DNA from: Bacteroidia bacterium
GTDB lineage: Bacteria; Bacteroidota; Bacteroidia; JAIBAJ01
DNA length: 64,000 nucleotides
Direction: 5' to 3'
NCBI GenBank assembly: GCA_019695265.1
Contig: JAIBAJ010000005.1
Coordinates: forward strand, 5,052 to 69,051
The position numbers and the translations under genes are program-made. Within the stretch, counting starts at the first letter, position 1. Every line of letters begins with the position of its first letter. Shown in pieces: positions 3,951 to 54,760 of this stretch. Below the pieces are notes generated by a model. It made no database searches. It worked only from the letters and a program-made list of their open reading frames with translations, and was not told the DNA's origin.

Positions 3951-5933
3951 ATGAAGGTATTGCATATTGAAGATAACGAATCTGATTCCTTTTTCATAAA
4001 ACGTTTGCTCGCTGTACACTTTAGTGATTTGGATTACAAACTTGTTGAAGACCTGGATGAATTTAAAACAAGTCTTAATGATTTCCAACCCGATGTTGTT
4101 ATTTCCGATCATAAATTAAAGGGATTTACCTCCAAAGAAGTTTATGTTGCTTTTAAAGACAGCTGGCAAAAATGTCCATTTATACTGGTTACCAATGCTA
4201 TATCGGAGGAGTTTGCGGTAGAAACCTTGCGTAACGGAGTAGACGATTATATTCTAAAGGACCGTTTGGAACGTTTACCAAAATCCATTGAAAATCTATT
4301 AGCAAAATACCAATGGGTTGCAGAAAAAGATGAATATATCAAGCAAATTATTGAAAGTGAAATTCGGTACAAGGATTTACTTCATTCTACTTCGGAGTTA
4401 ATTCACAGTGCCGATGAAAATGGCAATATTCTATTTGTGAACGAAAGTTGGAAACGAGTATTAGGCTATACATTAAGGGAGGTGTTAGCAAAGAACATCT
4501 TTGACTTTCTTGAAAACAACTCGAAAATTTCTTGCCTTAGCAAATTTCAGCGCATCATGAAGGGGGAAAAGGTCGAAAATATGAGATTAAAGATGATTTC
4601 CAAGGATGGATCGGTGAAAATTTTGGAAGGAATGGGAGTGCCACGCTTGCTTGGAAATAACGTTATTGGATCCCATGCATTTTTTAAAGACGTCACCGAA
4701 AAAGAAAATATTCAGTCTGAACTGGAAAAAAGTGAAAAGCGCTATGCCCTGGCCATTGATGCAACTGCCGATGGAATAATTGATTTCAATATCAAGGAAA
4801 ATAGTTTTTACTTGTCGGTTCATAGTTTTGACATATTAAATCAAAACAACAGACAAATCTCACTTTCGAATTTGTCAGAAATTATTCCGCCTTCCTTTTA
4901 CCAATGGATTAAAGGTCTTTTGGAATCCGATAATAATTTACAAAAAAAATTAAGTTTCGATCAGGATATACAATTAAACATAAATTCGGACAAATGGATT
5001 AACATCAAAGCCGGATTTAACCCTTCAGACTTTCGAATAAATGGCTCTATAAGGGACATTACGGACAAAAAAATTCAGGAAATCGAAATTCAAAACCTGA
5101 ATAAAGAACTTGAACAAAAGGTTGAAATAAGAACCTTGGAATTAAAATCCGCCATTAAGTTATTAACCCATAAAAACAAGGAAATTCAGGATAGTATTGT
5201 TTATGCAAAACGAATCCACAATGCCTTATTAACCATTCCGGTAGACTTTAGTGAACTATTTCCTAATTCATTTATAATCAACCAGCCTAAAGAGCTTATT
5301 GGTGGGGATTTTGCTTGGTATCAACAATTAGATGATTGTAAATTTGTTGCTGCAGTAGATTGCACCGGACATGGTGTTCCCGGTGCCTTATTGTCGGTTG
5401 TGGCCACCATTCTTTTGGATGAAGCTGTAATTAAACAAAAAATTATCAACCCGTCCGAGATTCTGGGCTTTGTTAACAATCGACTAAACATCCTATTCAG
5501 AAACTCAGCCGAAGTTATTTCGGATGGTATGGATATTGCCCTCTGTACTATCTGTGAAAAGGAAAATCTGGTGCTATTTTCTGGTGCTCAAAGACCCATT
5601 TATCAGGAATCGAACGGGGTTATTACCAAGCGATTAGGAGATAAAATTTCGTTGGGCCAAACTGAAACACAAAAATCATTTGCAGTGCAGGAAATAAAGT
5701 ATTTGCCCGGTGATATGTTGTATTTGTTTTCAGATGGAATAACCAGTCAGTTTGGTGGTCCGGAAGGCAAAAAAATCAGGAGGCAACAGTTTATGGAAGA
5801 GCTGGAAAGTATTTCAGGCAAACCAAACAAGCAAGAATTAATAACGGATTTTTTTGAGAAATGGAAAGGCGATATGGAACAAACTGATGATGTGCTCATT
5901 CTGGGTATAAAACTTAACAAAGCGGTAATATGA
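3951..5933 (+). CDS. Response-regulator receiver, PAS and PP2C-type (SpoIIE/RsbU-like) serine phosphatase fusion
   Basis: 660 aa. N-terminal REC (MKVLHIEDNESD ... DVVISDHKL ... FILVTN). Central PAS and coiled-coil region. C-terminal PP2C signature GGDFAW..AAVDCTGHGVPGALLSVV, DGMDIAL, LFSDG and DDVLILGIK. About 65% identical to the 17045-19021 ORF. Confidence 0.85.
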   Translation: MKVLHIEDNESDSFFIKRLLAVHFSDLDYKLVEDLDEFKTSLNDFQPDVVISDHKLKGFTSKEVYVAFKDSWQKCPFILVTNAISEEFAVETLRNGVDDYILKDRLERLPKSIENLLAKYQWVAEKDEYIKQIIESEIRYKDLLHSTSELIHSADENGNILFVNESWKRVLGYTLREVLAKNIFDFLENNSKISCLSKFQRIMKGEKVENMRLKMISKDGSVKILEGMGVPRLLGNNVIGSHAFFKDVTEKENIQSELEKSEKRYALAIDATADGIIDFNIKENSFYLSVHSFDILNQNNRQISLSNLSEIIPPSFYQWIKGLLESDNNLQKKLSFDQDIQLNINSDKWINIKAGFNPSDFRINGSIRDITDKKIQEIEIQNLNKELEQKVEIRTLELKSAIKLLTHKNKEIQDSIVYAKRIHNALLTIPVDFSELFPNSFIINQPKELIGGDFAWYQQLDDCKFVAAVDCTGHGVPGALLSVVATILLDEAVIKQKIINPSEILGFVNNRLNILFRNSAEVISDGMDIALCTICEKENLVLFSGAQRPIYQESNGVITKRLGDKISLGQTETQKSFAVQEIKYLPGDMLYLFSDGITSQFGGPEGKKIRRQQFMEELESISGKPNKQELITDFFEKWKGDMEQTDDVLILGIKLNKAVI

Positions 5934-6537
5934 TAGGAGTAGTGTCTTTGTCGATGGTTAACAAGCATGAACCGTTTACATTCACCCCTATCTATCATTT
6001 GTGGAAAATACACCCCTAATCTTTGGCATTGTAATCAGTGTCGAATGAAATAGCCGTTTCAATATTACACATTTTCCTTGCCAAAATGCTATATTGTCAT
6101 GGCTGATTTTTCCAGAAATTTCCATGTAAAGTCCTTAATTATCAAGCGAAAATACATTCCCTCGCAACCCATTTTAAACCATTCGGCAGCTTACTTGGCC
6201 GAATTCATTTCCATCAACGACTATTCATTCTTCTAATCACACTAGCTATTACCACTTGGTCAGTCTGACTATTTTGGAAAAATGAATTCCTCTGCAATTT
6301 TGCAAAATTTCTCCCGACCAGCAATACCACTAATTTCGAATACCACCACTTAATAAAGCCTTTGGCAAATTCCTTTAGGTATTTGTTATTGGTTTCACCG
6401 ACCCCTAATTTTTAACTTAATCATTTCTTGAAATGGTAGCATTTGAACCAAGTTATGAAAGCACTAGAAAGCTTAGCCAGTAATTCTAACCTCACCGCAA
6501 CGACTCGATTAACAAGTTTGAATTTAAACCTATTATT

Positions 6538-6628
6538 CCAATGATATTTGAAATAGTCCAAAACCTATTTTGAAAATTATCGTAGTAAACGCCTATGCAA
6601 AAGCTGTTTAGGCCAATTATTGCCATGT
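6538..6628 (+). repeat. Repeat S copy 1 (about 90 nt, roughly 75% identical to 45718-45812, same orientation)
   Basis: CCAATGATATTTGAAATAGTCCAAAACCTATTTTGAAAATTATCGTAGTAAACGCCTATGCAAAAGCTGTTTAGGCCAATTATTGCCATG against CCAATGTTATTTGAAAAATATTCCAAGAACTAGTTTGAAAATTACAGTGGTAAATGCCGATGCAATAGCTGTTTGGCAGTTTTGGCATGCAT. Confidence 0.6.
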
Positions 6629-6750
6629 AAAATTGGACAATTAAAGATAAAACAAACATTTTCGCATCTTTACCACATGAACCTTTTAACGCTGCTATTC
6701 CAACTTGATTTATCCCAATCCATTGAGGAAAATTAGGAATACCTGGTGTT

Positions 6751-6925
6751 GCGGAGATTTCAATTGCTGCGAAAGCTATTAGAAAGCACCATGCTAATTA
6801 CCTGCACCGCCACGTATAGCTTGCACCCGGGTTAGGGATTGCAGTGGAAATCCTTTTTGTCGAGGTTACGAGCAAAAAGATTGGAACGGAAAGCCCGACC
6901 CGTTAGGGGAACCCCCAAAAAAAAC
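6751..6925 (+). repeat. Repeat R2 copy 1 (about 175 nt), near-identical inverted copy at 45950-46128
   Basis: The reverse complement of 6751-6925 matches 45950-46128 at about 95% identity (..CTTTCGCAGCAATTGAAATCTCCG at one end, GGGGTTCCCCTAACGGGTCGGGCTTTCCGTTCC at the other). The internal block TTGCACCCGGGTTAGGGATTGC resembles the R1 5' block TTGCACCCCGGGCAACGATTGAGG. Confidence 0.75.
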
Positions 6926-7170
6926 AGGATTAAACCTTATTCGGAAATAAGATAAACAGCCAAACTAGCAGATTTTGAAACTTAAACCAAGAGTATATAA
7001 ACGATATACCTCTACCCTTACTGATTAGTGGCTTTTAGGGTGCATCATGGCACCTGTTCCATTGGTTATGCTACTTGTTCACCTTTATTCCATTTCCAAT
7101 TCATAAATCCCATTCGTTACCCGTTAGAAATAACCGATTGAAACAGGGTTTAAAGTATATTCGCACGGCA

Positions 7171-8253
7171 ATGAAAAGTAAGCTGCTTATTCTGCTTTTG
7201 GGTTTGGTTTGGGCGAATATGCTCCACGGTCAAACCTATTCTAATTTGTCGCTGGCAGCAGGTGGCCATTGGGGATTTTTACTCTATCACCATAAAAATA
7301 TGCGAGGTATGGCAACTTCGCACATTAAGGCCATGGAACTGGAACTGGGCTTTCGCTGCGATGGGAAAAAAAATTGGCATCATTTGTATCGTTTTCCTCA
7401 GTATGGAGCCAGTCTAACCATTTTTAACCTGGGTAGTCCGGATTACCTGGGAACTGGTATTGCTTTGTATCCATTTATTAAATTTCCATTGGCCGGTGGC
7501 AAATTTTATCAGTTGCATTTTAGAACCGGAGCCGGTTTAGGATATGTGGAAAAAATTTTTGAAATAAACCAAAACAACAAAGCCACTGCCATAGGCTCTC
7601 ATTTAAATGCCTATATCAATTTACGCCTAAGCAGCTACATACGTCTTTACAAAAGCTTGGTTCTTGACTTCGGATTAGGCTTATCCCATTTTTCGAACGG
7701 TGGTAGCAAGAAACCTAATCGGGGGATTAATGTTCCAACGGTGAATTTAAGTTTGGTATATGAAGTAGGACATGGAAAGGAAGTAAAGAAAGATACCAGC
7801 CGGTATATTTTTCAAAAGCATAGAGTGTTTATGATACTCAGCGGTGGATTTGCCCAGCTTTCTAAACCTGGGGGAAGTACGTATGGCGCTGCCTCCCTGC
7901 AAACTTTTTATGATTTTAGACCAACCGTTAAATCCAGCTTTGGTGCAGGTTTGGATTTAATGTATTTCGAAGGCAACCGGGAAAAATTCCGCCGCGATTC
8001 GGTTCAGGTAGGCAGTCCCCTGGAGAATATTCAGGTGGGTGGAAAGGTGTTTTATCAATTTAACATGCACCGCTTGATGGTTCCGATTGAGTTTGGTTTT
8101 TATGCCTATTCTAAAAACAAATCGGTTGGTTTCATGTATCATCGAATTGGATTACGATACCAGGTTAGTAAGCACCTGCTGTTTAACCTTACACTAAAAA
8201 CCCATTTTGCAGTTGCTGAATACATTGAATGGGGATTGGGCTGGAAATTTTAA
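7171..8253 (+). CDS. Secreted outer-membrane protein, probably of the acyloxyacyl hydrolase / lipid A deacylase (PagL-like) family
   Basis: Signal peptide MKSKLLILLLGLVWANMLHGQ begins at the second in-frame ATG, so the upstream 32 codons of the ORF were trimmed. The motif GLGLSHFSNGG resembles the His/Ser catalytic motif of the PagL family. Beta-strand-rich composition. Confidence 0.45.
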   Translation: MKSKLLILLLGLVWANMLHGQTYSNLSLAAGGHWGFLLYHHKNMRGMATSHIKAMELELGFRCDGKKNWHHLYRFPQYGASLTIFNLGSPDYLGTGIALYPFIKFPLAGGKFYQLHFRTGAGLGYVEKIFEINQNNKATAIGSHLNAYINLRLSSYIRLYKSLVLDFGLGLSHFSNGGSKKPNRGINVPTVNLSLVYEVGHGKEVKKDTSRYIFQKHRVFMILSGGFAQLSKPGGSTYGAASLQTFYDFRPTVKSSFGAGLDLMYFEGNREKFRRDSVQVGSPLENIQVGGKVFYQFNMHRLMVPIEFGFYAYSKNKSVGFMYHRIGLRYQVSKHLLFNLTLKTHFAVAEYIEWGLGWKF

Positions 8254-8280
8254 AGTGTTCGACCATGCTTTTTTGTTTCT

Positions 8281-8955
8281 TTGTGCATGGTTGAAGCGGT
8301 TTTATACGATATGGATGGGCTTATTGCCGATACCGAACCATTGTGGCAAGAGTCGGAAATAAAAGTTTTTAATGCAATTGGGGTTCCCTTAACTCGCGAA
8401 CTTTGCCGCCAGGTAATGGGTCAACGCTTAGACGAAGTTGTAAAGTACTGGTATCAGCAATTTCCCTGGGATGGAAAGGACTTAAAAGCAGTGGAGAATG
8501 AGGTAATAGAGGAATTGCTTTGGTTAATTGAAACCAGGGCTGAATTATTACCCGGGGTTGCCAATTCATTGGAGTGGGTAGAAAAAATGGGATTGAAACG
8601 AGCTGTAGCTTCTTCCTCTTCCCTTCGTATTATTCAACAACTGCTTAAAAAGGTGGGAATACGTTCCAAGTTCGAAACCATTTGTTCGGCTGAATTTGAG
8701 CCTTATGGCAAACCTCACCCCGGTATTTTTTTAACTGCAGCCAAACAACTTGGGGTTTTACCTTCCAACTGTTTGGTATTGGAAGATAGTGTAAATGGCG
8801 TTATTGCAGGTAAAGCAGCCCGAATGAAGGTGTTTGCTGTTCCTGACCGTGAAATGGCAGCCGACCCCAGGTTTTGCCTTGCTGATGCTATTCTCCAAAA
8901 TTTGAATCAATTGGAAGAAACAGCTAGCCGGCTTTATGGGATTCGTCCTTCTTAG
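8281..8955 (+). CDS. hxpB: HAD-IA family sugar-phosphate phosphatase (HxpB/YniC-like)
   Basis: The DMDGLIADTEPLW motif I and a C-terminal LEDSVNGVIAGKAARMKVFAVP block match E. coli YniC/HxpB along the whole length. Confidence 0.8.
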   Translation: MCMVEAVLYDMDGLIADTEPLWQESEIKVFNAIGVPLTRELCRQVMGQRLDEVVKYWYQQFPWDGKDLKAVENEVIEELLWLIETRAELLPGVANSLEWVEKMGLKRAVASSSSLRIIQQLLKKVGIRSKFETICSAEFEPYGKPHPGIFLTAAKQLGVLPSNCLVLEDSVNGVIAGKAARMKVFAVPDREMAADPRFCLADAILQNLNQLEETASRLYGIRPS

Positions 8956-14059: not shown

Positions 14060-14681
14060 AAAGCAAAAATAGTCAGTTATTCCATGGAAAGTGCGGATAC
14101 AATGGCTGTTTTAACCAGACTATCAAAATTGGTTAAATAGGGTTTGCTAATACACATTCAATCGATTCATTATAAGCCATTTAAATAATTATTTGAATCA
14201 CATTGGTGCAAGATTTTGAATTAGATTTTCTAGATTTCCTTGCATCCATATTTTTTGAAGATTACTTTGGATTGTTAGTCAGAAATACAGCATCTGCTTC
14301 GTTGCCTGCGGTTCGCATTATTTAAGTATACAGCTTCACCTTGGCGCCTTGCATCTACTGCATTTCTGACTTTTTCAGCAGATCCTAAATAATTATCAAT
14401 CGGATGAGTGATTTTTATTATACCCTAAGCAAGCCCCTAGGCAGAAGCAAAGCGGTATCAATTAATTTTAACCTTAAACAAACAGCTATTCCGGTGAATT
14501 GGTAGGTTAGTTTTACTAAGTTTCTATTCCATTCTCAATCATCCTATCTAAATCTAACAACCAAGTTAATTGCCCAAGCTTCAAACTTCGTTCAGGAAAG
14601 AAATGGACAAAAGATTACCACTGAAATTTTGATAATCAAAATCTCCCCCCCCCCTCAATAAATTTTAAAGAGAAATTGCAA

Positions 14682-15263
14682 TTAAATGCCTTGAGGAACA
14701 AAATCCTCTCTAAGAATATTTATCCTCTTAATCCCTCCCACTTTACCAATAACAGTTGACCCTAGCGGAGTTCCTTCAGGACAGAAAATTTTATGACAAA
14801 CCAAAGGAAAACATTTTACAATGTTTTTAATCTCTAACGTGAATCCTGCTTTAATTTTAGCACTTATAATGGATTCCAAAACCAAAAAAGTACTATTGTT
14901 TAGGTATTCCAAAAGAAGCTTTTTCTCAGGTAAAAATTCAAGGATTAACTTTTGACCTTCCCTTAGTTCATTCAAATTGAGAAAGCAAATTTCATTCGGA
15001 TTGCAACTTCCAACCTCCTGACCTTCTTGGCAAAAGTTATCCCATGAGGTATAACCCAAAACATTAGATAGAAGATCCAAAGTATAAAGATGCGGTTTGG
15101 CTGAGGGAGTGCTAAATCCAAAAAGACGTTTAAGGGTACTGGAACTTATATTACAGTTGTATCCCTCCCTTAAATCCTTGGAAATAGTTTCGCAGTCCTT
15201 TGGATACCGTATGGTGTATCCCAATTTCAGTTCAATGTTTTTTTTAAGCCTTTTGATGTTCAT
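14682..15263 (-). CDS. Small conserved HTH-like protein (paralog of 323-871)
   Basis: 193 aa. Shares the RYPKDCE..SKDLRE.YNCNISSSTLKRLFGFS and LVLES....K..F.LEI.NIV..FPLVCHKIF blocks with the 323-871 ORF. Confidence 0.55.
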   Translation of the reverse strand: MNIKRLKKNIELKLGYTIRYPKDCETISKDLREGYNCNISSSTLKRLFGFSTPSAKPHLYTLDLLSNVLGYTSWDNFCQEGQEVGSCNPNEICFLNLNELREGQKLILEFLPEKKLLLEYLNNSTFLVLESIISAKIKAGFTLEIKNIVKCFPLVCHKIFCPEGTPLGSTVIGKVGGIKRINILREDFVPQGI

Positions 15264-15392
15264 GGTAGAAGGCGATTTTAGTATATTTTTTTGTTGTTTA
15301 TAATTTAACGACCTAAAAGAACTTTATGACCTTTTTGATTTTTTTGATAGATTGATAGAAAAAGAAAATAGAATCTCTTTGTACCAAATCCG

Positions 15393-17044: not shown

Positions 17045-19021
17045 ATGAGGATTTTACATATCGAAGACGATGCCAGCGACGCCCTTTTCATTCAAAGAAA
17101 ACTCGCAAGTACATATACTCATTTAGAATACCTTCGAGTACAATCATTAGAAGAACTCAAAACTTCAATCCCATCTTTTGAACCAGACGTAATACTATCC
17201 GACCATCAATTAAATGGCTTTACCTCTAAAGAAATTTTTCAAATTTTCAAAGACTCTTGGCACAATTGCCCTTTTATACTAATTACAGATACCGTTTCAG
17301 AAGACTTCGCTGCCGAAGCACTAAGAAATGGGATAGATGACTATATTGTAAAAAATCGTATTGACCGTTTACCAAAAGTTATTGATACTTTACTTCTTAA
17401 AAACCAACTCTTAAAAGAGAGAGATGAATACATCAATCAAATTATTGAAAGCGAAACCAGATACCGCGACTTATTGTATTCAACCACCGAACTAATCCAT
17501 AGCGCTGATTTACAAGGTAACCTGAATTTTGTAAACCAATCATGGAAACGCTTTCTTGGATACTCCAGTTCCGAAGTCATCAACCGAAACATCTTCGAAT
17601 TTATTGCAGATTCTTCCAAAAGATCCTGCGAAATCAAATTCCAACGATTAATGAAAGGCGAAAAAGTGGAAGATATGAAACTAGAAATGATTGCCAAAGA
17701 CGGCCAATTGAGAAAAATGGAAGGATTAGCCGTCCCTCGTTACATTGGGAATTATCTTATTGGATCTCATGCCTTTTTAAAGGATATTACCGAAAAAGAA
17801 GAAATCCAAAGCAAACTTATTGAAAGCGAAAAACGATACGCACTTGCAATTGCTGCAACTTCAGATGGTATCATTGACCTTAATATTAAAAACAAACAAT
17901 TTTACCTTTCAAACCATTGCTTTGAAATACTTGATCTAGCTCCCCAACCCATCTCAATCTCTAACCTTCATTCCATCGTACCTTCCGGGTTCTATCTCTG
18001 GGTGAAAAACCTGGTAAAAAACAATGGAAAAAAATTGAAAAATTCACTTTTCGATCAAGATATTGAAATTTTCTCCAACCCATCAAAATGGGTAAATATT
18101 AAAGCAATCTTCAACCATAAAGATTGCCGAATTAATGGCTCAATCCGGAATATTACCGAAAAAAAAATCCAAGAAATAAAAATTCAAAACTTTAATAAAA
18201 ATCTGGAAATTCGGGTAGATCTTAAAACTAAAGAGCTTAAAAAGGCTATATCTTTACTAACCAGCCGCAATAAAGAAATACAAGACAGTATTCATTACGC
18301 AAAAAGAATTCACGATGCCTTAACTTCCCATCCCAGAAACTTGGATGAAATATTTCCAAATTCCTTTATTCTTAACCTCCCCAAAGATGTAATTGGCGGC
18401 GACTTTGCTTGGTTTCAACAGGTGGGCAATACCAAGTTTATTGCAGCAGCCGATTGCACAGGCCATGGTGTTCCTGGTGCCTTGCTTTCGGTGGTTGCAA
18501 CCATTCTTCTTGATGAGGCAGTTCTTAAACAAGAAATAAACAATCCTTCCAAAATCCTTGAATTCGTAAATAAACGCCTTTTAAACCTACTTAATAACAC
18601 TGAAGATCTATTGTCGGATGGCCTTGACATCGCCCTTTGTGCAATCAATCCCAATTGCAGGAAAATCCTATTCTCAGGAGCAAATCGACCCATTTATTTC
18701 AAAACCAACAACCAAATTACAGTCCTTCATGGCGATAAAATATCGCTTGGCGAACCCGAAAAAAACCATGTATTTTCACTTCAAACTATTTCTTACATGC
18801 CTAATGACCAGCTCTTTATGCATTCAGATGGAATTACCAGTCAATTTGGAGGAAAATTCGGAAAAAAATTAAAACGACAACACTTACTGAACGAATTAGA
18901 ATTTGATATGCCGATGCCTCAGAAATACCGTTTTATTCGTGAACTATTTGATGAATGGAAAGGTGACTTGGAACAAACTGACGATGTGTTGGTAATCGGT
19001 ATCACTTTGCCTTCAACTTAG
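17045..19021 (+). CDS. REC, PAS and PP2C (SpoIIE-type) phosphatase response regulator (paralog of 3951-5933)
   Basis: 658 aa. REC N-terminus (MRILHIEDDASD ... DVILSDHQL). PP2C motifs GGDFAWFQQ..AAADCTGHGVPGALLSVV, DGLDIALC, MHSDG and DDVLVIGI. Confidence 0.85.
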   Translation: MRILHIEDDASDALFIQRKLASTYTHLEYLRVQSLEELKTSIPSFEPDVILSDHQLNGFTSKEIFQIFKDSWHNCPFILITDTVSEDFAAEALRNGIDDYIVKNRIDRLPKVIDTLLLKNQLLKERDEYINQIIESETRYRDLLYSTTELIHSADLQGNLNFVNQSWKRFLGYSSSEVINRNIFEFIADSSKRSCEIKFQRLMKGEKVEDMKLEMIAKDGQLRKMEGLAVPRYIGNYLIGSHAFLKDITEKEEIQSKLIESEKRYALAIAATSDGIIDLNIKNKQFYLSNHCFEILDLAPQPISISNLHSIVPSGFYLWVKNLVKNNGKKLKNSLFDQDIEIFSNPSKWVNIKAIFNHKDCRINGSIRNITEKKIQEIKIQNFNKNLEIRVDLKTKELKKAISLLTSRNKEIQDSIHYAKRIHDALTSHPRNLDEIFPNSFILNLPKDVIGGDFAWFQQVGNTKFIAAADCTGHGVPGALLSVVATILLDEAVLKQEINNPSKILEFVNKRLLNLLNNTEDLLSDGLDIALCAINPNCRKILFSGANRPIYFKTNNQITVLHGDKISLGEPEKNHVFSLQTISYMPNDQLFMHSDGITSQFGGKFGKKLKRQHLLNELEFDMPMPQKYRFIRELFDEWKGDLEQTDDVLVIGITLPST

Positions 19022-19027
19022 TTTTTT

Positions 19028-19170
19028 AAGTATTTGGCGGGCCCATTCGCACAACAATTTCACTTCGTCCGATAGTTCGTAAGGCTCATGGCCGGGCTAT
19101 CGCCGCTACTCCTCACCCGAAAGTATTCGGGTTGCGGGGTAGCATGCTCTATCCCTGCCCGAACGGAACC
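19028..19170 (-). repeat. Repeat R1 copy (minus orientation)
   Basis: The reverse complement reads ..CGGGCAGGGATAGAGCATGCTACC..GGCGATAGCC..GAATGGGCCCGCCAAATACTTAAAAAAC. It shares the 5' block, the GGCGATAGCC block and the 3' GGGCCCGCCAAATAC block with the other R1 copies. Begins 7 nt after the PP2C gene stop. Confidence 0.6.
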
Positions 19171-19560
19171 TCTACCTTTGGGTATATTGTTCTTGGCATT
19201 TATCTTAAAAAGGTCTGTTTCAAATCTCCTGCCAATACTTTGTTCTCAACCTCTATTTACATTAATGATGTTCGGGTATAAAGTTAGAAATGCAAAATGA
19301 TAAACTAACATGGCCAATCCCCTTTCTATATACTCCAAGTCAGGTTCAATGTAAATACCGCATTGCTAACTAACAAACCTGTTATACCAATCAATTGGGC
19401 TTAAAACGGGAATATTAAACCCTGCCAATCCCCTTGATTTCATTGGGTTTACCCAAACCGGGAACCTAATTTTAATACAATCCAAAAAAAAAATTATTCC
19501 ATCCGTTATGGAATCCGTCCAACTAGGCATCTAAATACTGAAACCAAAACCTTCTTTATC

Positions 19561-24020: not shown

Positions 24021-24261
24021 AAACAATCGTTCATCCCCTGAAGAATCTCCTGCCCCGTTATCGCCCATAGTTTGCCGTAAAGGTGAATTGGTATTTCATT
24101 TTTTTATGGGTCGGCAAAGCTATTTGGCTCTACCGGGTTTAGCTTAATTTCTGTTTGCTTTCAAATAATCGGCATCAATTGCAGTCCCAGCCCTAGCTTC
24201 TTTTTCCCAATTCTTGCTAATTCTGTTTCCCGATTTAAAAAAAACTGGAATTTAGCCCCAA

Positions 24262-26400: not shown

Positions 26401-26569
26401 CTATACATTATTATACAGCAAAAAAAGGAAGCCTTGCACCAATAGGATTCAAATAATTGCTTAAATAACTAATAATGGATAGATTGGGTGTATTTCGGCA
26501 GACCCTACTTAGTTGAAAAATCGCCTTGGCCTTTCGTTGCAAAGGAGACATTCGGTAAAAAAATAAAGA

Positions 26570-33773: not shown

Positions 33774-33940
33774 AGGTTGCGCCTCGGGCAACGATAGAGG
33801 CAAGTAGCCCACAGGCTCACGCGGCGCTAGCCAAGTGGGCCGAGGACTACAGCCGATAGCGTGACCCGAACGCCTGTGCAGGGTGGTTATAAATTTGCAA
33901 AATGGTAGTTAGGCGGAGGGGGCCCGCATACTAGGAATTT
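33774..33940 (+). repeat. Repeat R1 copy (plus orientation), reference copy
   Basis: GGTTGCGCCTCGGGCAACGATAGAGGCAAGTAGCCCACAGG..GGCGCTAGCC..GAGGACTACAGCCGATAGCGTGACCCGAACGCC..GGGGGCCCGCATACTAGGAATTTTAAAAAA. Lies in a convergent intergenic gap. Confidence 0.7.
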
Positions 33941-43860: not shown

Positions 43861-43940
43861 TTTGCGCGCCTGACAACAAGTTCACAAATTCACTGGAAGT
43901 ATTTCCAATCAATTCGCATTTCAATTGATTGTTTTTGGTT

Positions 43941-44855
43941 TTAGTTTTTCCACTTCAGGGTTGTAATCGCTTCGTTTACAGTTAATTGTACAGGCAAACC
44001 CAGTGCTAATGGCAAATTCCGGAATATATGTCCGGCCTCCAAACCAAATGCCACCGGATAACCATACTCGCCCACAGCTTCCCGAACAATCTCTTCAACC
44101 GTTCGCCCAAATGGCTCTGCATTGTCCTTCATCTCACTCATCCCTCCAACTACCAGTCCTGCCAACCCTTTCAATTTCCCTGCCCGTTTCAGTTGCCAAA
44201 GCATACGATCAATATGATACAGGTACTCATCCAGATCTTCCAGGAATAGAATTTTTCCATCCAGGTCCAATTCTGAATCGGATCCCGAAATGGAATAAAG
44301 TATTGACAAATTCCCGCCAACCAATACCCCTTCTGAACTTCCAAACCGGTTGTTGGAATGGGGTTTAGCTATCATCGCTTCCAATCCTTTACCTTCCCAA
44401 AAATCTTTTAATCGTTGTAATGCCTCTACATCTACCGAATTGGGCTGAAAATTCAGCGACATTGGCGAATGTAAACTAGGTAATCCAACTTGTTGATGAA
44501 CATGGGCATGTAATACAGTAATATCGCTAAAGCCACATAACCATTTGGGATTGTTTTTAAATCCATCCCAACTCAATCCATCTACTATTCGCACAGTGCC
44601 GTATCCACCTTTTGCAAACAACACCGCTTTTATTTCCGGGTCATCCAGGAAAGCCTGTAAATCATGGGTTCGTTGGGTGTCATTGCCTCCAAACTGACGG
44701 TCTTTTTCAAAAATATACTTGCCCAATACTACCTCAAAACCCCATTCTTCCAAGGTATTCAAGCAGGGTTGAATGGCTTCCTTAGTAACAAATCGAGCAG
44801 TGCAACAAATGCCAATTTTATCCCCTTTTTTTAGGGAAGGTATCAAATGGTACAT
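43941..44855 (-). CDS. LD-carboxypeptidase (peptidase S66, LdcA/MccF family)
   Basis: 304 aa. LKKGDKIGICCTARFV N-terminus, then the conserved ..GFSDITVLH.. and ..LEAGHIFRNLPL.. S66 blocks. Confidence 0.8.
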   Translation of the reverse strand: MYHLIPSLKKGDKIGICCTARFVTKEAIQPCLNTLEEWGFEVVLGKYIFEKDRQFGGNDTQRTHDLQAFLDDPEIKAVLFAKGGYGTVRIVDGLSWDGFKNNPKWLCGFSDITVLHAHVHQQVGLPSLHSPMSLNFQPNSVDVEALQRLKDFWEGKGLEAMIAKPHSNNRFGSSEGVLVGGNLSILYSISGSDSELDLDGKILFLEDLDEYLYHIDRMLWQLKRAGKLKGLAGLVVGGMSEMKDNAEPFGRTVEEIVREAVGEYGYPVAFGLEAGHIFRNLPLALGLPVQLTVNEAITTLKWKN

Positions 44856-44860
44856 GGTAG

Positions 44861-45622
44861 TCAGGGCTGTTTAAAATACGGATCATTGGTTAAAAGCTCT
44901 TGTTCTAGTTGAGCATAAACCCTTTGTTTCAAAATCGGTACATCAGCTTCGGTTAAACCTAGCACCGAAATAGGTTCCAAAAATTTAACATGAATAGTAC
45001 CCGGACCTTGAATAAGCAAGGTGGGGTGTGGCATCAGGGTGCGAACATTAAATAGTACCACCGGCAACAAAGGAACCTGCATTTCTATTGCAATCCTAAA
45101 AGCCCCTTCTTTAAAAGGTCCCAGGGGATTAGGTCCGGTATTTCGGGTTCCTTCGGGCATAATTAATATGGAAAACCCTTGTTGAAGTTCTCGCTTTACC
45201 TGTTCCACGCTTTTTTTACGACTTTCTGCATCGTTTCTATCCACATTGACACAGCCTACCTTAAACAAAAAACCCATCACCGGTATATTACTTAACTCCT
45301 TCTTAGCCATCGCTTTAAACGGTATTGGTATGCCGGATGCCATCGCAAAAATATCCAAGGACGAGGAATGATTTCCTACCACTATATAATCTTTGCGTTG
45401 TTTAAAATACTCCAATCCTTCCACTTTCAGTTTCATCCCCATCAAAAAAATCCAGGCATTGCTCCAAGCCTGGTACCATGGAAAAAGCTTAAAAAAACTA
45501 CGTTTCCCATAAATCCAATATGCCACCAATGCCAGCGGGTAGGAGGTAGCTACAAAGGCAATAAATATGAAAAGACCCCAAAAGGTATACAGGAAACGAA
45601 GAAAATTCTTTACTGGTTGCAT
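44861..45622 (-). CDS. 1-acyl-sn-glycerol-3-phosphate acyltransferase (PlsC-like)
   Basis: N-terminal TM. HX4D motif VVGNHSSSLD. FKEGAFRIAIEMQVPLLPV matches acyltransferase block III/IV. Confidence 0.8.
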   Translation of the reverse strand: MQPVKNFLRFLYTFWGLFIFIAFVATSYPLALVAYWIYGKRSFFKLFPWYQAWSNAWIFLMGMKLKVEGLEYFKQRKDYIVVGNHSSSLDIFAMASGIPIPFKAMAKKELSNIPVMGFLFKVGCVNVDRNDAESRKKSVEQVKRELQQGFSILIMPEGTRNTGPNPLGPFKEGAFRIAIEMQVPLLPVVLFNVRTLMPHPTLLIQGPGTIHVKFLEPISVLGLTEADVPILKQRVYAQLEQELLTNDPYFKQP

Positions 45623-45717
45623 AACTATTATCTAGCAATAATACATAAATTCAGTCATACCATACAGCCTTGCTTCAGGAGTAAGAATAAGTAATTTGCT
45701 TTTTATACTCCTGTTTA

Positions 45718-45812
45718 CCAATGTTATTTGAAAAATATTCCAAGAACTAGTTTGAAAATTACAGTGGTAAATGCCGATGCAATAGCTGTTTGGCAGTTTT
45801 GGCATGCATCAT
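45718..45812 (+). repeat. Repeat S copy 2
   Basis: See 6538-6628. Same orientation, about 75% identity. Confidence 0.6.
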
Positions 45813-45949
45813 TGGCCTATTGCAGATTGGCAATCGGTATTAAATCCAAATTCAGCACAATCAGGTGGGTAATTAAGCCTTAAGTCTATTTTTTTCAAAA
45901 CCCACCGGATCCGATGTTTACATTCAAATTATGGCAGGTTCAAGTTGGT

Positions 45950-46128
45950 GCTTTTTTGGGGGGTTCCCCTAACGGGTCGGGCTTTCCGTTCCAATCTTTT
46001 TGCTCGTGCCTCGACAAAAAGGATTTCCACTGCAATCCCTAACCCGGGTGCAAGCTATACGTGGTGGTGCAGGTAATTAGCATGGTGCTTTCTAATAGCT
46101 TTCGCAGCAATTGAAATCTCCGATTGGC
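45950..46128 (-). repeat. Repeat R2 copy 2 (inverted relative to 6751-6925)
   Basis: Near-identical reverse complement of 6751-6925. Confidence 0.75.
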
Positions 46129-46242: not shown

Positions 46243-46410
46243 GTTGGGTTTGCACCCCGGGCAACGATTGAGGCAAGTAGCCCACAGGACACCTACGGCG
46301 ATAGCCTAGGGGGACGAGGACTACAGCCGAAAGCGTGACCCGAACGCCATTTGCCTGTACATTGGTTGTGCAGGTAGTTGGTAGGCGTGAAGGGGGCCCG
46401 CCAACATACA
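46243..46410 (+). repeat. Repeat R1 copy (plus orientation)
   Basis: GGTTGGGTTTGCACCCCGGGCAACGATTGAGGCAAGTAGCCCACAGG..GGCGATAGCC..GAGGACTACAGCCGAAAGCGTGACCCGAACGCC..GGGGGCCCGCCAACATAC. Confidence 0.7.
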
Positions 46411-46451: not shown

Positions 46452-49400
46452 CTAAAAATCCATACTAAGAGAAAGGTAAAATATGGGTTTTAGAATAATG
46501 CCATCCACTGCACCCCAGGCATAATCGGCTCGAATAAAGTAGCCTAAAATTTTAGTTCGTGCACCGAAACCAAAGCCATAAACCAAGGGGTCGGTCGTGT
46601 TTTTTAACTTAATGGTGAGTGATCCGTCCTGAATAATTTTGGTATTAAAGGTATTTCGATCAGAGTAGGGGGTTAATCCGTTCCAAGCCGTTCCAACATC
46701 GCCAAACCCAATCAATTGAAAATTGTTGATGAAGTCGGATTTGATAGGCCTATTAACCAAATAACGGAAAATTGGCCAGCGAATTTCGGAATTGATAACT
46801 GCAAAATTGGTTCCATTTCGAATATTTTGGTAGAAACCTCTCATATTGGTAGCAATGGCCTGGTATTGGTAATTTTCGGTTTGGGACACCGGAATAGAAT
46901 TGTCATACTTGGTACCTAACCAATTGTCTACTCCGCCCAGGTAATACAGCAGTTTTTCATTTCCCAGGCTTGAACTTCCGGCTACCCGGTTAGCCCAAAT
47001 CAAATCTCGGTGAATGCGGGTATAGTGTCTGAAATCGGCACCAACCACAGCGAAATAATTGGTATTGTTGAGGTGGTGATAGAACTCCCCAAAAATTTTG
47101 TAACGTGCCCCTTGGTAAAGGTTTAGGCCTCTTGAAATGGTATTATCGAAAATATATTCCAGTTTTACACCACCCAAATAGCTATTGTCGTTCGGTTTGC
47201 GCAAATTGGCTTCATCTACACTCAGGTAGGCAACCCTGTCGTGGCGACCCAGAATGGTGGCTTTAACTGCCGAATTCTCAGTAAATGGGTAACGCAAGAT
47301 ATAGCTTAGGGTGTGAGACTGAACCTTGTTAGGGTAATTGGCTGCGGGGTTTGAAAAGGCCTGGCGATGGAAAAACACCTGTTTATCGAGGCGTTTTTTG
47401 AGATTTTGCCAACTTAGAAAAAATTCATTGGAATTTAGATTGGCGGCCAGTCTAAAACCACCAACAATTTTATAGTCTTCGAACAGGTCGCTTGCACCTA
47501 ACTTAAACAATCCGTTGATTCCCGGATTAAAATAAACGGCGCCTCCACCGGTGTAACGCTGATAGGAGCTGGAGGTAAAAGAATTGTCTAATTGGGTTAC
47601 CACATAGTCGGTTGAGAACCGGATTTCATAGGGGCGTTGTTTAGCTAATTTAAAGGTGATGGTATCTTCTGCAAGTCCGGAGGCTCCGTGTTTTTGTTTA
47701 TCTTTTTCTTTGCGTTTAGACAACCTGTCTCCGCTGCCTGCCGGGTTATTGGTTTGGTTAACGGCATTGATGGAGTCGCGGATTAGTTCCACACCGGCCT
47801 TTTTCTTTGGGGCATAGGTTTCATTGGTAAAAACGTAATTGTCTATATCAATTTCATCGGGATTGGACTTAGTTTTGGGTGGTTCAATTTTGGGTTTTTC
47901 AACCGGGGTGGGTTTGGCTTGAACCTTTTCTTTTTTCTTGGTTTCCCGTTTAGAATCTTTTTCTTGCTTGGATCGAAAGAAGTTGGAACTTAGTTTTACT
48001 TCTTCTTTTTTATCGCTCGAAATGGGTTTGGTAAACAATTTATAGCGACCGTTTTCAAAGTATACTTCACCCAACACATTGGCTTTGGGGGCAGCATCCA
48101 TTTGCAAGAGGTTGCGTTGGTAATTGGTGATAGGGTAGGAGGTGGTGAACCAACGGTAATGGGTTATGGTATCTATAAAGGCAATGGTGCTGTCGATTCG
48201 GGCTAAATAGCGGTTTTGAATTCCGTTGGCATCGCTGATGTAGGCAAAGTGGGAGGTGTCGTAAGCAATAGGCATTATTTCATCGGCGAATTTGGTTGAA
48301 GAAACCCGCTTTAAAACCTGGCTTTTGGTTTTGTAGTCATAAATGAATAAATCGAGGTTGGCATCGCGGTGAACAATAGACGAATCTTTTGGTTTTATAG
48401 TATCATTCACCCGGTTGGAGCTAAATACTACTTCACGACTTTTATTGATAAACCTTGGATACAAATCATCCCAGGAATCTTTGGTAACCTGGAGATAGGT
48501 ATTGGAAATAATGTCGTAGATGAATATGTCACTTTGGCCAAATTGAACAGCCGAAAAGGCAAACTTTTTACCATCGTCCGAATAGGAGTAATCCAGTATT
48601 TTATCGAAGTTATGCAAGGGGCGAGTATCAATTTCTCGGGTATCAACATTGTACATCGAAAGCAGAATTTTACCTTTTTTCTCCGTAATCCAGCTTAGTA
48701 GTTGTCCACTTGGATGCCAGGCTAAAAGTGGATAGCTGTAATCGGTTTTTTGTACACTTCGGTATTCTTGTTTCAGTAACTTTTTCTGGCGTTTTTTAGA
48801 ATCCAGATTCTTTATGAAAATCCGGTACAAACCCATGTCATTCACTACATACGCCGCTTTTTGTCCATCCGGACTCAATTTCAAATTCTGATAAACCCTA
48901 CCTTTCCTGAAGCGTTTCAAAACCAGGTTGCCCTGAGGAGTTTCCAATTTTTTTAATGGCTCGATGTATTGTTTTTTGTAATACTCTTGCCATTGTTCTA
49001 CCAGGGTTTTCAATTGAACGCCCAAAACGAAGTTAAATCCATTTTCCACATTCCGGCTCACTCTGGTCATGTAAAGGATATCGGAAATAACCGATTTTCC
49101 GTAACTATCGGCAATAAAGCTCCACAAGGAATGCCCGGCATAGGTGGCCTGATCCCCGCTTAAACGATTCAGTTTGTTAAACTTTCCGGAAACGATTCCG
49201 TCTTTGACCTGGTTTTCTATATCGGCATTCCAGTCTTTTGAAATATACGATATCAACCCATTCATATACCACTCGGGAAGGTTTAAAAAGGCTGAGTTTC
49301 GGATAACATCTTTAATACTGCCACCATACATCATTTGTCCAATCATTACCTGAGCAATTCCGGCCCTGATTTGTTCTTCCAAATGCCGGTGGTCCCCATC

Positions 49401-49799
49401 GAAATACAGAACCATTTTACCGTCTACCAGGTGGGTGAGGCCGCCGGTATTATAGGTAACATCGGTATTTAGACCCAAATTGCTTTGCCTCAGGTCGGAG
49501 AGTTTGTTGTAAACAATAAATTGCAAGCGTTCGTCAATGGTATAATCAAAGCGTTTTTGAATTTCCACCATTGATTTTTCGGCGGTTTTGGCCGTATAAA
49601 TGGCCAATTCTTTACCACCCAAATAGAAGTAAATATCGTAATGTTCGTACCGGTAAAATTGCCAGAGAAATTCATTAAACTGGAGGCGGTTCTTACCAAA
49701 AGTCATTTGCGACCCGTTGTAAAACTGGGCATTGGCCTGCAGGCTGAGCAAACCTAATAAACTAGCATAAAAAAATCGACCAAGCAGTTTCACACGCAA
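46452..49799 (-). CDS. Large secreted protein with a TolB-like beta-propeller region and a C-terminal beta-barrel (hypothetical)
   Basis: 1115 aa. Signal MRVKLLGRFFYASLLGLLSLQANAQ. The middle region has PD40/WD40-like repeats (..YSDDGKKFAFSAVQFGQSDIFIYD..). The C-terminal ~330 aa have alternating hydrophobic beta-strands and end ..YLSLSMDF (terminal Phe). Confidence 0.5.
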   Translation of the reverse strand: MRVKLLGRFFYASLLGLLSLQANAQFYNGSQMTFGKNRLQFNEFLWQFYRYEHYDIYFYLGGKELAIYTAKTAEKSMVEIQKRFDYTIDERLQFIVYNKLSDLRQSNLGLNTDVTYNTGGLTHLVDGKMVLYFDGDHRHLEEQIRAGIAQVMIGQMMYGGSIKDVIRNSAFLNLPEWYMNGLISYISKDWNADIENQVKDGIVSGKFNKLNRLSGDQATYAGHSLWSFIADSYGKSVISDILYMTRVSRNVENGFNFVLGVQLKTLVEQWQEYYKKQYIEPLKKLETPQGNLVLKRFRKGRVYQNLKLSPDGQKAAYVVNDMGLYRIFIKNLDSKKRQKKLLKQEYRSVQKTDYSYPLLAWHPSGQLLSWITEKKGKILLSMYNVDTREIDTRPLHNFDKILDYSYSDDGKKFAFSAVQFGQSDIFIYDIISNTYLQVTKDSWDDLYPRFINKSREVVFSSNRVNDTIKPKDSSIVHRDANLDLFIYDYKTKSQVLKRVSSTKFADEIMPIAYDTSHFAYISDANGIQNRYLARIDSTIAFIDTITHYRWFTTSYPITNYQRNLLQMDAAPKANVLGEVYFENGRYKLFTKPISSDKKEEVKLSSNFFRSKQEKDSKRETKKKEKVQAKPTPVEKPKIEPPKTKSNPDEIDIDNYVFTNETYAPKKKAGVELIRDSINAVNQTNNPAGSGDRLSKRKEKDKQKHGASGLAEDTITFKLAKQRPYEIRFSTDYVVTQLDNSFTSSSYQRYTGGGAVYFNPGINGLFKLGASDLFEDYKIVGGFRLAANLNSNEFFLSWQNLKKRLDKQVFFHRQAFSNPAANYPNKVQSHTLSYILRYPFTENSAVKATILGRHDRVAYLSVDEANLRKPNDNSYLGGVKLEYIFDNTISRGLNLYQGARYKIFGEFYHHLNNTNYFAVVGADFRHYTRIHRDLIWANRVAGSSSLGNEKLLYYLGGVDNWLGTKYDNSIPVSQTENYQYQAIATNMRGFYQNIRNGTNFAVINSEIRWPIFRYLVNRPIKSDFINNFQLIGFGDVGTAWNGLTPYSDRNTFNTKIIQDGSLTIKLKNTTDPLVYGFGFGARTKILGYFIRADYAWGAVDGIILKPIFYLSLSMDF

Positions 49800-49896: not shown

Positions 49897-50070
49897 TTTT
49901 TGGTTTGTTGCTTTGGCGGGCTGCCTTTTGCCCAAAAAAAATCGCTGAACCCCAAAGCTTTCCACCAGGGCAAAAGTCACCGGGCTTTCGGCTGTAGTCC
50001 TCGCCCCCCAAGGCTAGCGCCGTTGGGGTTCTGTGGGCTACTTGCCTCTATCCCTGCCCGATGGTGCAAA
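49897..50070 (-). repeat. Repeat R1 copy (minus orientation), forming an inverted pair with 46243-46410 around the 1115-aa gene
   Basis: Reverse complement: GGGTTTGCACCATCGGGCAGGGATAGAGGCAAGTAGCCCACAG..GGCGCTAGCC..GAGGACTACAGCCGAAAGCC..GGCAAAAGGCAGCCCGCCAAAGC. Confidence 0.7.
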
Positions 50071-52115: not shown

Positions 52116-52164
52116 AAAGAAGTTGTTATCAATTTGGACAAACAAATTGATAACAACTTCTTTA
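52116..52164. promoter_or_regulatory. Perfect 20-bp inverted repeat (candidate operator) in the patatin gene's upstream region
   Basis: AAAGAAGTTGTTATCAATTT ggacaaac AAATTGATAACAACTTCTTT, about 240 nt upstream of the patatin start. Preceded by a small hairpin CCCGAAtaaaTTCGGG. Confidence 0.5.
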
Positions 52165-52221: not shown

Positions 52222-52264
52222 TCCCAAAAAAAAACCCGGTGAAGGACTTCACCGGGTTTTTTTG
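52222..52264 (-). terminator. Bidirectional intrinsic terminator after the M43 protease gene
   Basis: AAAAAAAA CCCGGTGAAG gac TTCACCGGG TTTTTTTG, a perfect 10-bp stem flanked by A and T runs. Confidence 0.8.
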
Positions 52265-54569: not shown

Positions 54570-54760
54570 ATGGTTGTAAAGAGTGCGAAAGTTGGGGCTA
54601 AGGTCGGGCAACGATTGGAGCAAGTAGCTCTGCTGAAGCCGCAGCGGTAGCGGAGGTGGAGGCAGACTACTGCGGAAAGCGTGACCTTTTTGCCCCTGAC
54701 AATTCCCAATGGAATTTGGTTGCCGGTAATGGGGGCAAAAAGGGGCCCGCCAAATACTAA
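54570..54760 (+). repeat. Repeat R1 copy (plus orientation)
   Basis: ..GTCGGGCAACGATTGGAGCAAGTAGC..GCGGTAGCGG..GACTACTGCGGAAAGCGTGACC..GGGGGCAAAAAGGGGCCCGCCAAATACTAAAAAT. Confidence 0.65.

Follow-up and report, generated by a model that had tools for sequence, protein, structure and literature searches.

A 39-kb-spaced inverted repeat pair in a Bacteroidia contig as members of the Flavo-1 structured-RNA family, with a candidate CCA-tailed three-way junction

Two near-identical intergenic repeats in inverted orientation, R2a and R2b, within the 64,000-nucleotide stretch of Bacteroidia DNA analysed here (hereafter, the window) are new members of a known structured-RNA family, Flavo-1 (RF01705). 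We estimate at roughly three in four the probability that the two are recent duplicates of a multicopy structured-RNA element that is matured at a short closing stem (P0) and at the encoded CCA after it. The first-pass annotation of this DNA had described R2 as an inverted repeat pair with a companion repeat and missed the membership in RF01705, which both copies match at 61.4 bits. As ordinary members of a dispersed family, the two copies no longer make a case for programmed inversion of the 39 kb between them.

Flavo-1 was found in 2010 by comparative genomics as a probable non-coding RNA of Bacteroidetes with 239 instances, displaying covariation, stems of variable length and conserved nucleotides, and was judged not to be cis-regulatory (Weinberg et al. 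2010, PMC2864571). For Flavobacterium psychrophilum, a transcriptome study lists 128 occurrences, which lie sense or antisense to transcribed regions and often are not transcribed, many being silent on their own strand (PMC9723704, supplement); this suits a DNA-level repeat no less than an RNA. The motif is among the most abundant orphan RNA motifs of bacteria.

The R2 pair and its Flavo-1 core

Comparison of the window with itself by blastn aligned R2a with the minus strand of R2b (46122-45949) at 97.1% identity over 175 aligned columns (E=2e-78) [Table 1]. The inverted pair reported by the first-pass annotation, with ends at 6751-6925 and 45950-46128, is thus borne out, the ends being right to within 1-6 nt; its identity was rightly described as high, the figure of about 95% being slightly low. 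In the output of a repeat finder, an indel divides the pair into one arm of 114 nt (99%) and another of 59 nt (97%); the longest exact tracts are 57, 56 and 49 nt. The two copies differ at five positions and each has its own unique flanks; identity ends abruptly on either side, beyond which the flanks are no more similar than shuffled sequences. No terminal inverted repeats were found at the edges of R2, whose ends (CGGAGATTTC... and ...CCCCCAAAAAAAACA) are not inverted repeats of each other, and no target-site duplication is common to the flanks at the two loci, so that R2 differs in both respects from MITEs and Correia-like elements.

Exactly two Rfam matches reach gathering thresholds in the 64 kb, and both are to Flavo-1, whose gathering score is 42 bits; they coincide with the cores of R2a and R2b. 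R2 has in common with Flavo-1 an interrupted hairpin with conserved loop bases (GAUUG..AG..GG and ..CG.AAAGC), a Bacteroidetes host and a multicopy, intergenic distribution. The closest locus belongs to a Bacteroidetes metagenome-assembled genome (MAG; 75% amino acid identity), and a T9SS Por_Secre_tail domain occurs among the window genes. R2 departs from the Flavo-1 model by a 13-nt insertion and by a private leader of 77 nt. This leader has a homologue in none of 44 metagenome loci (described below), and the closest relative, L036, covers only R2 positions 75-173; since similarity to L036 starts at position 75, the first 74-77 nt of R2 are best regarded as private. The leader reads AATTGCTGCGAAAGC...CACCGCCA and gives the tentative impression of the 3' half of another, truncated family member upstream, but a covariance model of the family gave no match there. 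A ACCTGCACC box is common to the R2 leader and to the leaders of class-C metagenome elements (L028, L029, L046, L053, L055).

As to their surroundings, R2a lies 245 nt upstream of, and co-oriented with, a gene for a PagL-like lipid A deacylase (7171; interval 6926-7171), and R2b lies 327 nt upstream of, and co-oriented with, a gene for a PlsC-type acyltransferase (45622; interval 45622-45949). The placement of R2 upstream of two lipid acyl-chain genes could be a coincidence.

Table 1. Positions of R2, R1 and S features in the window, and of one element on a viral contig
Feature	Position	Strand	Remarks
R2a, entire repeated unit	6752-6926	+	175 nt; 97.1% identical to R2b
R2b, entire repeated unit	45949-46122	-	from blastn, Rfam and the P0/P1 reading
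R2a leader	6752-6828	+	5' extension specific to R2; one mismatch against R2b
R2a, Flavo-1 match	6814-6904	+	61.4 bits, E=6e-11, full model 1-76
R2b, Flavo-1 match	45971-46060	-	61.4 bits
R2a, putative P0 5' strand (GGGTT)	6829-6833	+	predicted to pair with AACCC at 6910-6914
R2a, P1	6835-6896	+	Flavo-1 hairpin with conserved purine-rich internal loops
R2a, putative P2	6899-6908	+	mini-hairpin CCC-GTTA-GGG; a hairpin of variable length stands here in every family member
R2a, putative P0 3' strand (AACCC), then CCA	6910-6917	+	CCA at 6915-6917; A-run to 6924
R2b, putative P0	46045-46041 / 45965-45961	-	
R2b, P1	46039-45979	-	
R1a	33785-33929	+	cmsearch; tail GCCCG then CAT, CCA degenerate
R1b	46258-46403	+	cmsearch, 122 bits; predicted three-way junction, P0 CGGGC/GCCCG then CCA
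R1c	49914-50060	-	cmsearch
R1d	54605-54752	+	cmsearch
R1e (seventh copy)	19035-19161	-	cmsearch, 38.9 bits, E=1.8e-9, match 19076-19179; P0 and CCA
Possible eighth copy, degenerate relative	24054-24136	-	cmsearch, 12.9 bits, E=0.06
S, copy a	6507-6648		direct repeat of copy b, about 75-78%, frameshifting indels
S, copy b	45685-45827		direct repeat of copy a
L080, Flavo-1-type element	8423-8444		IMG/VR UViG_2775507289_000001; viral-contig pattern match

A predicted three-way junction with a CCA tail

The Rfam model of Flavo-1 is a hairpin only. It takes in neither P0 nor a second hairpin (P2) nor the CCA tail, all of which are present in the elements studied here and again in sequence flanking the 2010 alignment. 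Their arrangement was read from 30 members printed with flanks. A 5-mer stands just 5' of the hairpin (P1), with a conserved A between, and its complement follows a second, variable hairpin; this 3' strand of P0 is almost always succeeded by CCA and an A-rich stretch. In R2, a core of 89 nt, preceded by the 77-nt leader, would fold on the Flavo-1 strand into a three-way junction composed of a 5-bp closing stem (GGGUU/AACCC), a long P1 hairpin with G/A-rich internal loops and a small P2 hairpin, with a single-stranded CCA and A-run directly 3' of P0.

Two tests bear on P0. With members anchored on GATWG, the 5-mer at -8 to -4 was compared with the downstream sequence for a Watson-Crick or G-U complement followed by CC. 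A perfect complement was present in 24 of 33 members, where shuffling of the downstream sequence predicts 4.3, and foreign 5-mers taken from other members found one at a rate of 12.5% (Fisher 4e-12). The bases after P0 in the 24 perfect cases are CCAA in 18, CCAT in two and CCCA in two. With CCA as the anchor, a member's own complement precedes 26% of downstream CCA sites compared to 1.3% for foreign 5-mers; such a site is present in 22 of 32 members, and a further five reach four of the five pairs. Nine P0 sequence classes covary: GGGUU/AACCC (R2, L036 and others), GGGUG/CACCC, GGGCA/UGCCC, GGGCC/GGCCC, GGAC/GUCC, CGGGC/GCCCG (all R1 copies) and, in the flanks of the Flavobacteria of the 2010 alignment (Flavobacterium johnsoniae, Gramella forsetii and others), GCGUG/CACGC, GCGUU/AACGC and GCGCU/AGCGC, each of the last three followed by CCA.

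The sequence tests thus point to the two features of a tRNA acceptor-like end, a helix joining the ends of the element and a single-stranded (N)CCA after it, and suggest that R2, R1 and many of their relatives form three-way junctions of P0, P1 and P2 with a 3' CCA. The abundant F. psychrophilum-type subtype with 'UAGCC' directly before P1, read from a sequence of that species and like the Rfam consensus, has no obvious P0 or CCA, and the three-way junction is therefore common but not universal. It also counts against the structured-RNA reading that the minimum free energy fold of the whole of R2 is no better than those of shuffles (z = -0.66). As far as our literature searches showed, a CCA-tailed three-way junction has not been described for these elements, and this may be the only new part of the present description.

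A stem directly before an encoded CCA is a hallmark of the substrates of RNase P and 3' trimming, among them 4.5S RNA, tmRNA and C4 RNA. The likeness of R2 and its relatives to the 4.5S RNA precursor, tmRNA and the C4 RNA of phages P1 and P7 resides in the end-joining helix with an encoded CCA next to it, and the likeness to non-tRNA substrates of RNase P in general extends to the variable, unconserved upstream leader and the lack of an intrinsic terminator. They differ from such substrates in that P0 is only 5 bp long, P2 has no T-loop and the copy number is far higher. We infer from the stem-then-CCA signature, and from the lack of a hairpin with a U-run, that the ends of the RNA are probably made by processing; the copies would multiply by duplication or transposition of a discrete unit. 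The inverted arrangement of the R2 pair would then follow from family copies landing or persisting in either orientation.

An RNA acting on the Flavo-1 strand is favoured by the strand-asymmetric conservation with purine-rich loops, by the stem followed by CCA and by the unconserved leaders, together with the lack of a terminator in R2, the -7-like boxes of several relatives and one same-strand terminator. Boxes resembling the -7 element of Bacteroidetes lie upstream of some relatives (e.g., TAAATTTG in L046), and the L027 element has a hairpin and T-run at its end on the same strand. Against such an RNA, a sigma-70 scan of both loci complemented by inspection by eye revealed no promoter in or just upstream of R2 itself, with nothing beyond shuffle expectation, and no Bacteroidetes TAnnTTTG box was seen by eye in R2. 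Likewise, no hairpin with a U-run is present in R2, and a terminator scan of both loci stayed at shuffle expectation; the organism does use canonical intrinsic terminators (e.g., 52228-52263). ARAGORN found no tRNA genes in the window.

A bolder and decidedly speculative proposal is that most Flavo-1 elements, including R1 and R2, may not be simple hairpin sRNAs but CCA-tailed three-way-junction RNAs, in which the closing stem with its CCA mimics the acceptor end of tRNA. If this were so, the RNAs would be cut from any sense transcript by RNase P and 3' trimming, which would account for leaders that are not conserved and for the absence of promoters and terminators. Spread through an RNA intermediate, in the manner of tRNA-derived SINEs, would also become possible and would explain why the sharp-edged, 97% identical R2 copies end in an A-run. 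The proposal would give a testable biogenesis to a motif that has been an orphan for 16 years and has more than 100 copies in some Flavobacteria. More generally, experimental handles on Flavo-1 are the covarying closing stem with the second hairpin and encoded CCA common to many members, the R1 elements missed by Rfam, and a density of up to about one copy per 9 kb.

Family members in the window and elsewhere

R2 is accompanied in the window by a second repeat family, R1. The two align across the Flavo-1 core, where they have invariant loop bases (GAT[T/A]G, ..G..., GA.T....C.GA[A/T]AGC..G) and differing stems, and RNAalifold places the six R1 and R2 sequences in the Flavo-1 topology with 16 pairs, five of which carry compensatory double changes. 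The kinship of R1 and R2, which had been suggested from a block of shared sequence, is borne out by this block, by the shared loop bases and by the compensatory stem changes, both families being of Flavo-1 type. A covariance model built from the R1 and R2 alignment (six inputs) was used to search the window with filters off and returned seven copies with E<=2e-9, the six inputs among them, and a further, doubtful one [Table 1]. R1 accordingly has five copies instead of four, R1e being absent from the repeat finder's R1 list, and each copy is some 50-60 nt longer at its 3' end than the repeat finder shows, the additional sequence comprising a second hairpin and the tail GCCCG followed by CCAAA. 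The Rfam Flavo-1 model gave no match to R1 at E<=5 in the window or at E<=10 in a 261-nt slice, and R1 is a divergent Flavo-1-like subfamily that this model misses. The doubtful copy at 24054-24136, just downstream of an A2M-like gene, forms an interrupted hairpin, CCCGGTAGAGCCAAATAGCTTTGCCG...CGGCAAACTATGGGCGATAACGGGG, in which the loops are spaced much as in Flavo-1 and GATTG is lacking; it may be a decayed member of the family.

All family copies in the window are intergenic and occur in either orientation, at about one per 9 kb. Of these copies, five point in the direction of one or both neighbouring genes; the other three, including the doubtful one, are antisense to both neighbours. R1b and R2b adjoin each other on opposite strands, 136 nt apart.

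Scanning metagenomes with a degenerate core pattern returned 44 loci; about 28 hold true relatives, which belong to several lineages, and the remainder are false positives in coding sequence. Among 24 distinct relatives the modelled hairpin has 83.8% of its cells paired, compared to 28-56% when the partners are slid; 38 cells are double-changed, and the covariation score was reached by none of 500 shuffles. An interrupted hairpin with conserved loops and covariation, as in Flavo-1, is thus found in R1, R2 and the 24 relatives. At four class-C loci (L029, L046, L053, L055) the element seems, from the printed sequences judged by eye, much better conserved than its flanks. No element was found in 15.6 kb of the nearest species representative, a Bacteroidetes MAG with 75% amino acid identity, or at eleven more distant loci. 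A pattern scan of viral contigs gave 61 loci, all but four of which are one phage coding sequence matching by chance; L080 is the sole true element among them, and a phage link for Flavo-1-type elements was rejected.

The S repeat, the 39-kb segment and alternative readings

S is a direct repeat that accompanies R2 at both loci. It was detected by blastn between 6538-6648 and 45718-45827 (77.9% over 113 nt, E=8e-15) and extended by gapped local alignment to 6507-6648 and 45685-45827, with identity near 75% and five indels, each of 1-3 nt; its similarity, like that of R2, is far beyond chance. The existence of S and its position to the left of R2 at both loci had been correctly noted, the gap, 103 nt at locus a and 121 nt at locus b, being somewhat below the 120-140 nt first claimed. 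No third copy was found by nhmmer in the window or in 118 fetched loci. S was rejected as coding, given that its minus-strand ORFs of 55 and 57 amino acids are broken by the 1-3-nt indels between copies, and as a structured RNA, given that the folds differ between the copies, the z-scores are inconsistent and the sole Rfam match is noise. A tblastn search with all window ORFs against both intergenic regions returned nothing except matches of sequences to themselves or inside the repeats. The idea that S and R2 form part of one larger duplication was likewise rejected: in either orientation, the spacers and the outer flanks have scores equal to the mean of shuffles.

With S about 77% and R2 97% identical, the two are separate units that differ in age, and S is most probably an unrelated, older piece of duplicated intergenic DNA. 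The claim that R2 has flipped relative to S holds insofar as R2 has opposite orientations at the two loci; it does not extend to an inversion event, the spacers and flanks being unrelated in either orientation, and the layout is accounted for equally well if a discrete 175-nt unit arrived independently at each locus, in one orientation or the other. The position of the S copies about 110 nt from R2 may reflect a preference of the element for certain targets, or an old duplication in which the spacer has since been replaced.

Two short-read contigs of the same organism, independent of the assembly and 100% identical to the window over the compared ends, stop at or near these repeats. L058 (ENA ERZ27268160) corresponds to window positions 6931-8909 and begins 5 nt past the edge of R2a; L001 (ENA ERZ27268172) corresponds to about 43922-45654 and stops 31 nt before S. 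This suggests that R2 and S break assemblies and, as regards the contig ending just outside S, that S may have further copies in the genome.

The two faces of the preferred reading, RNA function and selfish multiplication, are compatible. Selfish multiplication is favoured by the high copy number, by an orientation independent of genes, by adjacent copies in opposite orientation, by the sharp-edged 97% pair and by short-read contigs that start 5 nt past R2a or end 31 nt before S. The same observations can be read as those of a purely DNA-level selfish repeat of the REP/BIME, ERIC or MITE-like kind, in which the hairpin would act in single-stranded DNA or as a cruciform for a transposase or nucleoid protein and RNA would be incidental. 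A density of 7-8 copies per 64 kb here and of 128 per F. psychrophilum genome, many of the latter untranscribed on their own strand, an orientation unrelated to neighbouring genes (5 sense, 3 antisense), the unrelated flanks of the R2 pair, the opposed R2b and R1b and contigs that end at or near repeats would all fit. Indeed, ERIC/IRU, pneumococcal BOX, Neisseria Correia and REP/BIME/REPIN elements likewise occur in tens to hundreds of intergenic copies per genome in either orientation, with stable secondary structure and sometimes in clusters. We nevertheless consider a purely DNA-level repeat rather unlikely. R2 has no terminal inverted repeats or target-site duplication at its edges, and no transposase family is among the Pfam matches listed for the window. 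The elements, of 90-150 nt and not simple palindromes, are much longer and more elaborate than the 20-40-nt palindromes of REP/REPIN, and no RAYT-type gene was seen. Moreover, unlike in the structured intergenic repeats cited, the conserved bases lie in unpaired loops and the CCA tail instead of at the ends of the element; such strand-asymmetric conservation, with purine-rich loops and the RNA-processing signature of a stem and CCA, and class-C elements (L029, L046, L053, L055) that seem better conserved than their flanks argue for an RNA.

The pair had also been proposed as a substrate for homologous inversion of the 39 kb between its copies. The exact tracts of 57, 56 and 49 nt bear this out to the extent that tracts of 49-57 nt would in principle suffice for RecA-dependent exchange, and inversion remains a mere possibility. 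A working inversion system, in which recombination between the arms flips the segment and alters gene expression, is a different matter. Exchange would swap the partners of the two R2 copies, the PagL-like gene at 7171 and the acyltransferase gene at 45622, and leave an R2 upstream of both. Two near-identical inverted sequences bracketing a segment are also the layout of fimS, of the invertible promoters of Bacteroides and of shufflons. In those switches, however, the inverted repeats are short and specific, the segments span 0.2-5 kb and a dedicated recombinase lies close by, whereas the segment here is 39 kb long, no recombinase is among the Pfam matches listed and each arm is an ordinary copy from a dispersed family. 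With at least seven such elements scattered over the window, the R2 pair does not look like a dedicated inversion device. R2 contains no short inverted-repeat core typical of site-specific switches, and neither recombinase, invertase nor transposase families figure among the Pfam matches listed for the window genes (25 of 52 families). GC skew, which is noisy and uninformative, shows no step at either R2 site (6.9 and 45.9 kb), and no alternative junction was found, two public contigs stopping at the repeats. A programmed 39-kb inversion system is thus unlikely, and a working one that alters gene expression highly improbable; occasional rearrangement, or assembly ambiguity, of the 39-kb segment is possible.

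It is improbable, too, that R2 serves as a cis-acting leader or co-transcribed RNA regulating the envelope-lipid genes that follow it (pagL-like and plsC-like). Each copy does have a lipid acyl-chain remodelling gene downstream in the same direction, at 245 and 327 nt, and R1c and R1d stand about 100-115 nt upstream of co-oriented genes; two out of two makes for weak statistics, no co-oriented gene follows R1a, R1b or R1e, and Flavo-1 was classed in 2010 as not cis-regulatory (PMC2864571). We give hardly any credence to an assembly artefact in which the repeat has been collapsed or duplicated, or the 39-kb segment arbitrarily oriented. A 175-nt repeat is indeed longer than the usual k-mer, and short-read contigs from this organism are interrupted at the edge of R2, but the copies differ at five positions and their unique flanks match independent contigs at 100%. 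For these last two reasons the R2 repeats themselves are taken to be real; the orientation of the 39-kb segment, which is not secured in a short-read assembly, calls for caution.

Several other features of the window were observed. An AT-rich inverted intergenic pair (14134-14212, plus strand, and 26433-26511, minus strand; 78% over 79 nt), of sequence TAGGGTYTGC...AATTATTTGAATC..ATTGGTGCAAG, is unrelated to R1, R2 and S. Paralogous modules with 66-68% DNA identity were found at 340-883 and 14726-15275 and at 4104-5603 and 17198-18697, with a further one at 54854-56719. They include two genes for response regulator/PAS/SpoIIE phosphatase proteins (3951-5933 and 17045-19021), each with a similar small gene upstream, and a third SpoIIE-type protein with TPR repeats in the paralogous set (54854-56719). 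The Flavo-1-like R1e and R1d adjoin two of these three SpoIIE genes, and R2a lies about 820 nt downstream of the remaining one. The intrinsic terminator at 52228-52263 (A8-CCCGGTGAAGGACTTCACCGGG-T7) is bidirectional and is located between genes for a patatin-like protein and an M43/T9SS peptidase, and a 48-nt palindrome with perfect arms maps to 52116-52163. Finally, 46452-49799 on the minus strand encodes a protein of 1115 amino acids without a Pfam domain at E<=1e-5, which is 40-75% identical to proteins of Bacteroidales and Rikenellaceae MAGs and is bordered on both sides by Flavo-1-like elements.
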